Shown: positions 5,302 through 7,821 of the stretch, in pieces
Position numbering within the stretch: the stretch's first letter is position 1
Layout of the letters: every line of letters starts with the position of its first letter
UHGV virus genome: UHGV-0118722
Reading direction: 5' to 3' (one strand)
DNA from: a virus
DNA: 10,622 nt
Translations under genes and position numbers: made by a program
The notes under the pieces: model-generated
Databases searched by the model: none
Told to the model about the DNA's origin: nothing
The model's input: only the letters and a program-made list of their open reading frames with translations

Positions 5302-7217
5302 GCCGCTACCCCCGCTTTCTGGATTGCTACCAACAGATCAGCCAGGTGGCGAGCTGCGCCGTTAACCAGCTCTTCGTTTTCCTCAAAACGTCCGGCAGCC
5401 TGAAGGGCTGCAATCGCTTCCCGGACATTGCCCCGGGCGTTACGGATCTCCGCCATGTCAGTGCTTTTCATATCCATCACGTTATTGAGATATTCAATGG
5501 CTTTATTAGCCTCTGCATCTGCTTCGCTAACCGTTTCATCAGGCTGTGCCGGGGCCGGTTCTGGCTGAGTAATCTCACCGACTTCGGCCTGCAATGCATT
5601 GATCATGCTCTGCACCATTTTCTCGGTGCCAGCGCCCCCAGGAAACGCAATATTGGGGAAAGTTTTTTGAAACTGAGTTTTCAGCATTACGCGGAACTCG
5701 TCTGGTGAGCTGGTGGCCAGCTCCAGAGCTTTTTGTGCATATTTGCCAAACGGACCATTAGTAAGTGTCTTCGCCAGGAAGTCGAAAGAATCCTCGCGAG
5801 GCAATAACTTCAGGTCGTACTCACTCATTTGCTGATCAGAAAGCGGGGTATCGAAAGTAGCAATGCCGTAGCGTGCATATTCATAATACGGGTCACCTTC
5901 ATCAGGGCGCGGCAGAATTGCTTTGTTACCTTCAGGTATTGCGCCAGGGGCCGCCGGACGCATTTGCAGGGCATATCGATATGCACCTACAGAGACTTCT
6001 GGTTCAGGCGAAGAGCTACCGGTATCCTCCGCTTGTTCAGGTTCGACGTTTTCCGGTTTATGTTCTTCTGGTTGGACCAGGTATTCCGATACATTACCCG
6101 CTTTATAGGCTTTAAACAGCTTGCCGATCGCATCTGCCATGTCCACACCCTGTATGGATTTAGCCTTGATCATGTATACGCTGCCATCCGGATCGGTTAA
6201 CTGGATATACCCTTCGCCGCCCCCAATGAATTGCTTCATTGATGCACCATTACTGAGCGTCACTTCCCCGTCCATATGCATACGATTTTTGATACTGGCA
6301 AGGCGATCCGTCAGCGCGCGAGAGTGCCCACCAGTCATCCCCGCTGGAGCAATGGTATCGCGCCCACCGGTGCGATTGAGCTGATCAATCTCCGTCTGCA
6401 AACGCTCATTCTCTTCATAAAGAGAATCCGCTTCTGATGCAACAGCGTTAATTTTCTGCTCCAGATCTGCCTTCTGCCCTTCTACCGCTGCCACCTGATC
6501 CGCGAGGTCGCTCATGGCATCCTCTTTCTGGTCACTGTCAGCCTGTAGTTGGGTTATTTCATCAACAAGGGCTTTTTTCTTCTTCTGCGCACGCTGGAAT
6601 TTTGCCGAGTTTTTCTCTGCAAGGTTGGCAAGTTTCATGGTGACCTGCGCCAGCGTCATATCACGTCCACTCATCGGAGCAACGGTGTGAGTAACGTCTT
6701 TTTTATTCAGTAAGAACTGGAAAGCAACCAGCGTATCGCTATTGGTGATCCGGTTTTCCGCTGTCGGGCTATGAAACAGAATGCTGATAGTCTGACCATC
6801 ACTGAGCGGAATAATGGCTGGCAAGACCGGCAGCCCGTTAACGTTACGTGCCCGGCCAATTTCAGCGCCGCCGATCGCGCGCGCGCCGCTCTGGGCCACA
6901 TCCCCCGTTTTATCACTCCCCGCAGAGATTCCGGTACCATTCAGCTTCTGGTTCAATGCCCGGACAAATGCCTGCATGGTCCGGTGTAACTGCAAACGAG
7001 TAGAACTAATCGCCTCCAGTAAATCCGTAGCACACCAGTGGATCGGCGTGTCATAGAAGAACGTAGCCTCGATTTCCTCCAGGGTGTTGGATTCCGTCAT
7101 CAGATAGCGGTCCTCACCGGCCATTAATGCGCGATATTCATCATCAGTCACTGGCGGGGGAAGCACGTCAAGCCCAGGCTTGATCGTCACCCCTTTATTG
7201 ATATTGAACTGTTCCAT
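5298..7217 (-). CDS. darA: 639-aa protein with a central coiled coil, DarA-like
   Basis: AGGA ribosome-binding site 9 nt upstream of the ATG (7215-7217). It starts 1 nt after the upstream gene's stop. Residues about 100-260 are paralogous to the upstream 200-aa protein (shared ...DGQ.ISI... and KNSAKFQ motifs), fitting the P1 'homolog of DarA fragment' (hdf) relationship. The size matches the roughly 70-kDa DarA precursor as I remember it. Confidence 0.75.
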   Translation of the reverse strand: MEQFNINKGVTIKPGLDVLPPPVTDDEYRALMAGEDRYLMTESNTLEEIEATFFYDTPIHWCATDLLEAISSTRLQLHRTMQAFVRALNQKLNGTGISAGSDKTGDVAQSGARAIGGAEIGRARNVNGLPVLPAIIPLSDGQTISILFHSPTAENRITNSDTLVAFQFLLNKKDVTHTVAPMSGRDMTLAQVTMKLANLAEKNSAKFQRAQKKKKALVDEITQLQADSDQKEDAMSDLADQVAAVEGQKADLEQKINAVASEADSLYEENERLQTEIDQLNRTGGRDTIAPAGMTGGHSRALTDRLASIKNRMHMDGEVTLSNGASMKQFIGGGEGYIQLTDPDGSVYMIKAKSIQGVDMADAIGKLFKAYKAGNVSEYLVQPEEHKPENVEPEQAEDTGSSSPEPEVSVGAYRYALQMRPAAPGAIPEGNKAILPRPDEGDPYYEYARYGIATFDTPLSDQQMSEYDLKLLPREDSFDFLAKTLTNGPFGKYAQKALELATSSPDEFRVMLKTQFQKTFPNIAFPGGAGTEKMVQSMINALQAEVGEITQPEPAPAQPDETVSEADAEANKAIEYLNNVMDMKSTDMAEIRNARGNVREAIAALQAAGRFEENEELVNGAARHLADLLVAIQKAGVAA

Positions 7218-7218
7218 G

Positions 7219-7821
7219 TTAATTTCCTGCTTTCAGTTGCTTAAGACGACGTTTGAGTTCGCCATTCCGTGCCTTTTCGTTATTGAGTCGGCCCGTCTCC
7301 TTATCCAGCTTCGCCCGCAAATCAGTGATCTGCTGTTGATTGAAAGACACCGAATTCTGCGCGGACTTATAAGCGGCAACCACCTGAGCATTCCGCTGTT
7401 TTGCTTCTTGCAGGCGCTGAAAGTTGGATTTAACTGCCGGTTTCTTGTCTACCGGATTGGCAACACGCTTCGCTTTGGCGATCAGTGATTTCTGGAATTT
7501 TGCGGAGTTTTTGCGGGCCGCCTGTCCCATGACGGTACCAAGCGTCTTGATATCCGGCGACTGAGCGTTAGGAATAGCTTTTCCATTCAGTTTCACAGAC
7601 GATATATCGCCAGTATCGTTTACCTGTATGGCAAGAATTTGTCCGTCGTTAAGAACCAGCTTTGCGGTTTTAACTTTAACGCCATCTTTCGTTGTTGCGC
7701 GGTTGCTGGAGTCAACCTCAATTACCGTAACCCCGGTTTTATTGATCGCCGCGATAAGGGATTTCAGCCCCTTTTCATTAACCTGGTCAAAATCGACCGT
7801 TGCATACTTATTTTTCGTCAT
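7219..7821 (-). CDS. hdf: 200-aa paralogue of the central part of the downstream 639-aa protein, Hdf-like
   Basis: The ORF track gives 7219..7830. I prefer the second ATG (7819-7821) because AGGA lies 8 nt upstream of it, whereas the first ATG has no usable spacing. Shared motifs with the 639-aa protein include KNSAKFQ, encoded by a 21-nt stretch that is 20/21 identical between the two genes. Confidence 0.7.
   Translation of the reverse strand: MTKNKYATVDFDQVNEKGLKSLIAAINKTGVTVIEVDSSNRATTKDGVKVKTAKLVLNDGQILAIQVNDTGDISSVKLNGKAIPNAQSPDIKTLGTVMGQAARKNSAKFQKSLIAKAKRVANPVDKKPAVKSNFQRLQEAKQRNAQVVAAYKSAQNSVSFNQQQITDLRAKLDKETGRLNNEKARNGELKRRLKQLKAGN

Follow-up and report, generated by a model that had tools for sequence, protein, structure and literature searches.

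The darA operon of the window

The analyzed stretch of DNA (called the window; 10,622 nucleotides of the virus genome UHGV-0118722) contains the open reading frames hdf (7219-7830), darA (5298-7217), ddrA (4936-5301) and ddrB (1936-4923), whose order is identical to that of phage P1 (hxr-ddrB-ddrA-darA-hdf), and a ddrB-ParB domain was found by Pfam in the operon. DNA identity to P1, P7, SJ46 and RCS47, in which the genes are annotated as DdrA, DarA and Hdf, amounts to 98.5-99.1%, the collinearity with P1 spans positions 1539-7958, and none of the 19 close phage genomes departs from collinearity. These matches identify the window as the darA operon of a phage or plasmid of the P1 type. Its hdf and darA are essentially the same genes as those of P1 (PDB 9ukm, 9vz0), and orthologous tandem pairs occupy the same operon position in P7 (OdaE/DarA) and in D6, JK004, SJ46 and RCS47 (Hdf/DarA). 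The window differs from P1 in its insertion-sequence content at both ends and by a 653-bp deletion upstream of hdf, which removed lydA, most of lydB and 4 of the 6 nucleotides of the annotated LPdar -10 element, leaving the window without the intact LPdar and upstream lydA-lydB of P1. This loss bears on expression in the window's element, not on the identity of the proteins. When PLSDB was searched with the entire window, none of its records showed this arrangement.

The hdf gene (7219..7830, minus strand) encodes a protein of 203 residues equivalent to P1 Hdf and P7 OdaE, which is 99-100% identical to the Hdf of P1-like phages and matches PDB chain 9ukm_H ('Hdf') over its full length (E 4e-122) with 2 of the 203 residues differing. 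Residues 13-109 (7504..7794, minus strand) form a DarA_N domain (Pfam PF18788, E 1.1e-21, 77.3 bits at a gathering threshold of 27 bits). The AF2 model of Hdf (pLDDT 82.9) shows a helix at residues 23-30, four strands within residues 36-81, a helix at 94-124 and a long C-terminal helix at 136-200 (7231..7425, minus strand), the bundle partner of DarA; residues 135-203 were modeled as an alpha-helix domain in the cryo-EM structure of P1 (PMC12810830). The stop codon of hdf and the start codon of darA are arranged as TAA-C-ATG with a 1-nt spacer (7215..7221, read from the minus strand), and an AGGA lies within the 3' end of hdf, 7 nt upstream of the darA ATG. The TAA-C-ATG layout suggests translational coupling of the two genes.

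The darA gene (5298..7217, minus strand; open reading frame list and P1 annotation) encodes the internal head protein 'defence against restriction A' of 639 residues, a full-length match of PDB chain 9ukm_I (1385 bits) with a few substitutions. Its N-terminal extension (residues 1-69; 7011..7217, minus strand) has no counterpart in Hdf and low pLDDT in an AF2 model of DarA 1-381; it is reportedly cut off by the prohead protease and is absent from the cryo-EM density, consistent with a cleaved fragment of about 9 kDa (PMC12810830). A DarA_N domain follows at residues 66-204 (6606..7022, minus strand; PF18788, E 1.4e-42, 144.8 bits). [quoted passage not shown] A DarA_C domain at residues 411-472 (5802..5987, minus strand; Pfam PF18789, E 3.5e-16) is absent from Hdf.

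Homology between Hdf and DarA

The preliminary description of this DNA had claimed that Hdf and DarA share a block of about 120 residues running into the start of a basic coiled coil. The block is at least that long, and the coiled-coil helix is included. Aligned pairwise by BLASTP, Hdf 29-115 matched DarA 107-210 with 29% identity and an E-value of only 0.001, a signal which by itself is weak and which is the one point in favor of the view that the similarity is confined to a short stretch, KNSAKFQ, between non-homologous proteins. That view is refuted by the profile and fold comparisons. Both proteins match positions 2-122 of the 122-position DarA_N model far above the gathering threshold, and alignment of the two family alignments with hhalign joined Hdf 43-201 to DarA 121-282 over 145 columns (probability 97.7%, E 1.9e-12), with Hdf 136-201 placed opposite DarA 217-282. 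As judged from these alignments, the homology extends past the Pfam boundary and takes in the long helix that follows. The family alignments also have invariant D-G-Q and F residues in common; within the DGQ motif, all 15 Hdf-type sequences have D62 and all 24 DarA-type sequences have D140. The 'NX+' motif of Iyer 2017 could not be placed unambiguously on the Hdf and DarA sequences.

At the level of the fold, a Foldseek search of the PDB with the Hdf model gave only two significant matches, both of them DarA (9vz0_I, 6e-6; 9ukm_I, 2e-5; 200 columns). The TM-scores between the Hdf model and these chains were only 0.40-0.42, with a large rmsd, which we tentatively attribute to different trajectories of the long helices; the order of secondary structure elements (helix, beta-sheet, helix) is alike in the AF2 models of Hdf and DarA. 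Both proteins share a core made of the alpha+beta DarA_N domain and a long helix, to which DarA adds the cleavable extension 1-69, a penton-binding domain and a C-terminal region including DarA_C. Hdf may have arisen by copying of part of DarA, or DarA by the gain of further domains on an Hdf-like core. Of the earlier proposal of a duplication within the operon, the paralogy of the two adjacent genes is borne out by sequence, profile and fold, and the part that failed is the reading of a 21-nt identity between them as a relic of this event (see below). The gene name hdf reportedly goes back to the resemblance of its product to a portion of DarA. The shared DarA-N domain was defined by Iyer 2017, and the Pfam family DarA_N was defined from exactly these two proteins, both of which match it here without any difference.

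The shared 21-nt tract

The heptapeptide KNSAKFQ is encoded at 6594-6614 (minus strand; CTGGAATTTTGCCGAGTTTTT) as K202-Q208 of DarA and at 7492-7512 (minus strand; CTGGAATTTTGCGGAGTTTTT) as K107-Q113 of Hdf, and lies in the helix after the beta-sheet, near the start of DarA helix 189-283 and inside Hdf helix 94-124 of the AF2 models. On the minus strand both 21-mers read AAA AAC TCS GCA AAA TTC CAG, and their identity of 20/21 nucleotides was confirmed; no other match with three or fewer mismatches occurs in the window, and none is expected (200 shuffles). The divergence of the surrounding DNA was likewise confirmed, with 37.7% nucleotide identity in the aligned codons outside the motif. The tract consists of exactly the seven shared codons, and the adjoining codons share 0-2 nucleotides. 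Six of the 7 codons within the motif are identical, as against 11 of the 28 codons for identical residues outside it, and synonymous sites elsewhere in the hdf-darA alignment are saturated.

Conservation of the motif is deep in DarA-type proteins, where it reads E-[KR]-N-[ST]-x-[KA]-F (E201, N203 and F207 invariant in 24 sequences), and in Hdf-type proteins F112 is its only invariant residue. The two paralogues agree in 7-13 of 21 nucleotides and 1-5 of 7 residues in five other lineages (2-3 of 7 residues in D6 and JK004), and the Hdf version of the motif equals the DarA version, with 20/21 nucleotides, in the P1 lineage only. We explain the identity by the shared peptide together with a small measure of chance in the choice of codons. 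The match does not date from the duplication, as had been assumed: the duplication goes back before the split of very distant lineages, synonymous sites are saturated elsewhere, and the match is limited to the P1 lineage.

The confinement of the near-identity to this lineage might instead reflect a footprint of short-tract gene conversion between darA and hdf. The otherwise variable Hdf motif carries the well-conserved DarA version here, and under the operon's codon usage the probability of at most one mismatch, given seven identical residues, is 0.02; because this value is small, a short conversion tract keeps some probability. We nevertheless regard it as unlikely. The 3 of 21 lineage-specific sites in the P1 hdf motif correspond to the gene-wide rate of 13% without any excess, and when such substitutions were compared in four lineages over the length of both genes, no signature of gene conversion emerged, other stretches of the genes reaching 8 such sites. 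The AAC and GCA codons are also present in hdf of the P0036 clade and may for this reason be ancestral. In 71 paired IMG/VR loci there was neither allele swapping nor homogenization: darA carried only the C allele and hdf only the G allele, and each site had its own, independent synonymous and non-synonymous variants. The tract would moreover span only about 21 nt, without homology in the flanks.

The same variants bear on the idea that the 21-mer is a nucleotide-level element placed in both genes, such as a small-RNA target, a site bound by a protein or a signal for translation. Its sole support is that the 21-mer is the longest stretch of DNA common to hdf and darA, and we consider it extremely improbable, given the natural synonymous changes (TTC to TTT in darA; GCA to GCG and CAG to CAA in hdf), the lack of conservation at the DNA level in JK004, D6 and three metagenomic clades, and the fact that the tract coincides codon for codon with a conserved peptide.

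As direct repeats, the two copies lie 898 nt apart and agree in codon phase, and a deletion that joined them would preserve the reading frame. They could in principle act as a recombination substrate that naturally gives rise to hdf::darA fusions of 545 residues or to duplications, and the preliminary description had indeed suggested that the tract mediates recombination between the genes. The predicted deletion junction was built and run against PLSDB and all complete E. coli genomes; none of the 475 plasmid records and none of the 469 E. coli records covered at least 80% of it. Among 108 IMG/VR viral-contig stretches no fusion was found either, 71 of them containing both copies at a spacing of exactly 898 nt and none having hybrid flanks, and the close phage genomes are, as stated, all collinear. 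The runs of exact identity are just 12 and 8 nt, shorter than RecA-dependent exchange usually requires. Selection would probably act against fusions, since the loss of either protein abolishes the packaging of Dar proteins. Frequent recombination is thereby largely refuted, and a natural role of the repeat in forming fusions or duplications is highly unlikely. Taken together, the 21-mer is neither a functional DNA element nor a recombination hot spot.

Several database entries were considered as fusions and rejected. The truncated or chimeric Hdf and DarA entries P0035, P0038, P0040, P0043, P0045, P0047, P0096 and P0098 are frameshifts, assembly chimeras or DarA::DdrB fusions, and none of them breaks at KNSAKFQ. 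DarA variants of 546-547 residues come close to the predicted 545, with DarA 1-381 fully covered; one of them, P0056, is a C-terminal frameshift.

Age of the pair and the DarA-Hdf complex

An hdf gene immediately upstream of darA was also found in D6, JK004 and three metagenomic clades, and two very distant contigs show the same layout of a short followed by a long gene. The short proteins of these contigs match P1 Hdf (E 7e-10 and 1e-12) far better than P1 DarA (E 0.07 and 2.0), and their long proteins match P1 DarA (E 5e-27 and 2e-23). Since the short-plus-long pair occurs in such distant elements, the duplication is ancient, and by these matches the tandem pair arose before the P1-like phages. 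With high confidence, hdf and darA are an ancient pair of tandem paralogues that belong to the late darA operon of a P1-like phage, and the 21-mer is a by-product of the shared peptide.

The preliminary description had further predicted that the two proteins share a binding partner or co-assemble. In P1 this is directly seen: a 2026 cryo-EM study describes 55 DarA-Hdf pairs per head under the capsid vertices, each pair consisting of one DarA and one Hdf joined via their helices as a parallel bundle, located on the inner capsid surface at the penton-hexon junctions and touching the packaged DNA (PMC12810830). Published virion copy numbers of about 100 DarA and about 400 Hdf (cited in PMC12810830) are at odds with a simple 1:1 complex that would comprise every molecule. 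Loading of the other Dar proteins requires both DarA and Hdf, and Dar packaging fails if either is lost (PMC12810830). The pair also favors P1 heads of normal size, and a head-size role is entered in a table of PMC9024508. P1 DarA and Hdf leave the capsid with the DNA at infection and shield it from type I restriction. By virtue of their near-identity to P1, the window's proteins would likewise form the heterodimer and act in Dar packaging and head-size determination. Because the homologous region includes the interface helix, the DarA-Hdf complex is a heterodimer of paralogues, which would descend from a self-pairing ancestor; in two structural papers the heterodimer is not called paralogous. 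Of the earlier interpretation, paralogy and co-assembly therefore stand, and the 21-mer as duplication relic or recombination tract is not supported.

In L010, the long DarA-type partner has a PBECR1 C-terminal domain in place of the DarA_C of P1, further long partners have other C-terminal regions, and in L009 a protein of more than 2,191 residues with helicase domains is encoded two genes downstream of the pair. We tentatively propose, at somewhat less than even odds, that the DarA_N pair is an ancient and widespread module for anchoring cargo in the capsid, which arose from a self-pairing ancestor and combines a constant short partner with a long one bearing interchangeable C-terminal cargo or effector domains, and which recruits giant DarB-like proteins. 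If this were true, Hdf-type genes would mark capsid-delivered anti-defense cargo well beyond Punavirus.

The relationship between Hdf and DarA was already known from the Pfam family and Iyer 2017, and their co-assembly from cryo-EM, so that the discovery value of the present analysis is small. Its modest additions are that the homology includes the DarA-Hdf interface helix, that the pair predates the P1-like phages and that the 21-nt identity can be dismissed as a peptide-level coincidence in one lineage. Among known systems, the authors of the cryo-EM study compared DarA-Hdf with CpmA/CpmB of SaPI1 (80alpha), which are likewise internal accessory proteins that alter head size (PMC12810830). 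The likeness is one of head-size role, and the two pairs are not known to be homologous. CpmA/CpmB favor small capsids and disappear as the head matures; DarA-Hdf favor large ones and remain part of the virion.

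The hdf-darA pair in its P1-like locus

Across window 1539-9590 the sequence is collinear with phage P1 at ~98% identity. The minus strand carries hxr (1638-1946), ddrB (1936-4923), ddrA (4936-5301), darA (5298-7217, 639 aa), hdf (7219-7830, 203 aa) and lydC (7992-8273); cin (8401-8961) lies on the plus strand after the dar genes, and beyond it the invertible tail-fibre segment begins. Given this collinearity and gene content, hdf and darA belong to a P1-like element, either phage or plasmid prophage. Hdf and DarA each match, over their full length, chains deposited from cryo-EM of the P1 head (9ukm, 9vz0). 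A single base parts the hdf stop from the darA start (TAA-C-ATG, 7215-7221) and AGGA is found 7 nt upstream of the darA ATG, an arrangement which suggests that darA is translationally coupled to hdf.

Relative to P1, 653 bp are deleted at window 7957/7958 (8759-9411 of the P1 locus L001), with the loss of the complete holin gene lydA, two thirds of the holin antagonist gene lydB from its 5' end, and 4 nt of the 6-nt -10 element annotated for the late promoter LPdar. The deletion endpoints share 2 nt of microhomology, and the junction was found neither in 5,426 complete E. coli genomes nor in the best PLSDB matches. Homology to P1 begins at 1539, just beyond the end of P1 isaB. Window 1-1538 contains a 78-aa ORF without assignment (17-253) and a degenerate IS1-family element with broken frames (DDE_Tnp_IS1 829-1152, HTH_Tnp_IS1 1208-1372), for which no blastn match (E <= 1e-10) was obtained in the P1 stretch including P1's own IS1. 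At the other end, the ORF that comes after the Sv' tail-fibre ORF (9009-10004) encodes an IS5-like DDE_Tnp_1 transposase domain (10050-10619); since the final P1 match stops at 9863, the invertible C segment is apparently interrupted.

Extent of the homology between Hdf and DarA

The name hdf reportedly stands for 'homolog of darA fragment' and is said to come from the 2004 P1 genome paper. The protein similarity described for the pair is real and extends beyond a motif, and both the paralogy and its extent were established here. BLASTP aligned Hdf with DarA over ~100 residues (29% identity, E 0.001), and the Pfam domain DarA_N was detected far over threshold in DarA (66-204) and Hdf (13-109). 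Profile-profile comparison (hhalign) of family alignments built from 24 DarA-type and 15 Hdf-type proteins gave an E-value of 1.9e-12 (probability 97.7%, 145 columns) and paired DarA 121-282 with Hdf 43-201, i.e. the beta-sheet, the motif KNSAKFQ and the entire long helix; two gaps of 11 and 3 columns were opened in DarA where the Hdf loop 125-135 lies.

The fold match was established as well. The AlphaFold2 model of Hdf (pLDDT 82.9) consists of a short helix, four strands, a motif helix (94-124), a loop and a long helix (136-200). When this model was searched against the PDB with Foldseek, the only two significant matches were experimentally solved DarA chains (E 6e-6 and 2e-5, 200 aligned columns). 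The global TM-score was low (~0.4), which may reflect a differing direction of the long helices. In a model of DarA 1-381 the elements follow one another as in the Hdf model, with the motif in the first turns of a single continuous helix (189-283); the Hdf helix is broken by the loop 125-135. Neither alignments nor structure tests confined the similarity to KNSAKFQ.

The 21-nt identity and its proposed roles

The two 21-mers are present as described, at 6594-6614 in darA and 7492-7512 in hdf with 20/21 identity, and no further copy with <=3 mismatches was found in the window; chance alone would give none. Their coding-strand sequences correspond to exactly the seven KNSAKFQ codons (Hdf 107-113, DarA 202-208) and differ only at the third position of the serine codon. 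Aligned codons outside the motif show 37.7% identity, and of 28 identical residues there only 11 share their codon; judged from these values, synonymous sites between hdf and darA are saturated. Among six lineages, the P1 clade alone reaches 20/21 nt between the paralogous motifs, the others sharing 7-13 of 21 nt and 1-5 of 7 residues, and with seven identical residues and the operon codon usage given, the probability of <=1 nt mismatch is 0.02. The motif is deeply conserved in DarA-type proteins (E201, N203 and F207 unchanged across 24 sequences with identities as low as 21%) and F112 is its only invariant residue in Hdf-type proteins. Because a short gene-conversion tract might leave such a pattern, this explanation was tested, and we consider it improbable: P1 hdf has three lineage-specific sites within the 21 nt, equal to its gene-wide rate, and another clade's hdf has the same AAC and GCA codons. 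Furthermore, in 108 IMG/VR stretches containing the 21-mer the C allele was always in darA and the G allele always in hdf, each site with its own synonymous and non-synonymous variants. We conclude that the 21-nt identity reflects peptide conservation plus a modest coincidence. Its reading as a relic of the duplication is not supported.

No supporting evidence was obtained for the repeat as a recombination substrate either. A deletion between the copies is predicted to yield an in-frame 545-aa fusion, Hdf(1-113)::DarA(209-639). The synthetic deletion junction was covered in 0/475 plasmid and 0/469 E. coli records with flanks, all 19 close phage genomes were collinear, the native 898-nt spacing was kept in 71/71 IMG/VR loci holding both copies, and no hybrid flanks were found in single-copy IMG/VR loci. 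Odd database proteins considered as repeat recombinants proved to be frameshifts, chimeras or DarA::DdrB fusions with breakpoints elsewhere. Two database entries, P0098 and P0096, are predicted DarA::DdrB fusions joined after DarA residue ~350 and ~340, respectively, which enter DdrB at two different points; they may be real ddrA-spanning deletions or assembly artefacts.

Age of the pair and comparison with P1

The order hdf-then-darA is conserved in D6, Cronobacter phage JK004 and three metagenomic or genomic clades, as well as in two very distant contigs (L009 501-2843, L010 4445-6965) whose tandem DarA_N pairs consist of a short (181-183 aa) and a long (593-654 aa) protein, the latter only ~30% identical to P1 DarA. 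The short proteins match P1 Hdf with E-values of 7e-10 and 1e-12 versus 0.07 and 2.0 for P1 DarA, and the long ones match P1 DarA (5e-27 and 2e-23). By these scores the short protein is clearly Hdf-type and the long one DarA-type in both contigs, so the duplication is older than these lineages. The C-terminal halves of the long partners vary (DarA_C in P1, PBECR1 in L010, neither in others), in agreement with the 'polyvalent protein' picture of Iyer et al.; owing to this variation, Hdf as a fragment copied from DarA and DarA as an Hdf-like core with added domains are not distinguishable here. The PBECR1 match in L010 is weak, and L009 encodes a >2,191-aa protein with helicase domains (DarB-like) two genes downstream of the pair. 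A DarA-type protein of 287 aa (L011) stands alone beside PAAR and baseplate genes, none of its neighbours giving a DarA_N Pfam match. In a clade with an Hdf 75% identical to that of P1 (L004 2315-3618, L005 299-1602), the gene immediately upstream of hdf, on the same strand, encodes a resolvase-type (cin-like) invertase and neither lydA nor lydB intervenes, an arrangement unlike P1.

The relationship between Hdf and DarA is itself already known: in the definition of Iyer et al. (2017; PMC5512222), the DarA-N domain forms the N-terminal part of DarA and is the only domain in Hdf. What the preliminary description observed is confirmed, and its interpretation finds partial support, for paralogy and co-assembly but not for the roles given to the repeat; its suggestion that the two proteins co-assemble or share a binding partner is correct and has been demonstrated by cryo-EM of P1, which shows DarA-Hdf pairs (PMC12810830). 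In this 2026 study, Hdf 135-203 and DarA 70-382 were resolved, and 55 pairs were located on the inner capsid surface at penton-hexon junctions. Complementary charges stabilise the parallel bundle made by their helices, the N-terminal domains turn a positively charged face towards the DNA, and the missing DarA 1-69 fits prohead protease cleavage (PMC12810830). A 2025 preprint arrives at a comparable view and links the pair to the large form of the capsid. P1 genetics, as cited in later papers, show that virions lack every other Dar protein once hdf or darA is deleted and that normal-size heads drop from ~80% to ~15%, and that protection against EcoA-type restriction requires DarA. In P1, according to the literature, the two proteins form a heterodimer through their helices and contact capsid and DNA, and the DarA N-terminus is cleaved; both the loading of Dar proteins and head size depend on the pair, which is ejected together with the DNA. 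As the interface helices are themselves homologous, the P1-type heterodimer may have descended from a self-pairing ancestor.
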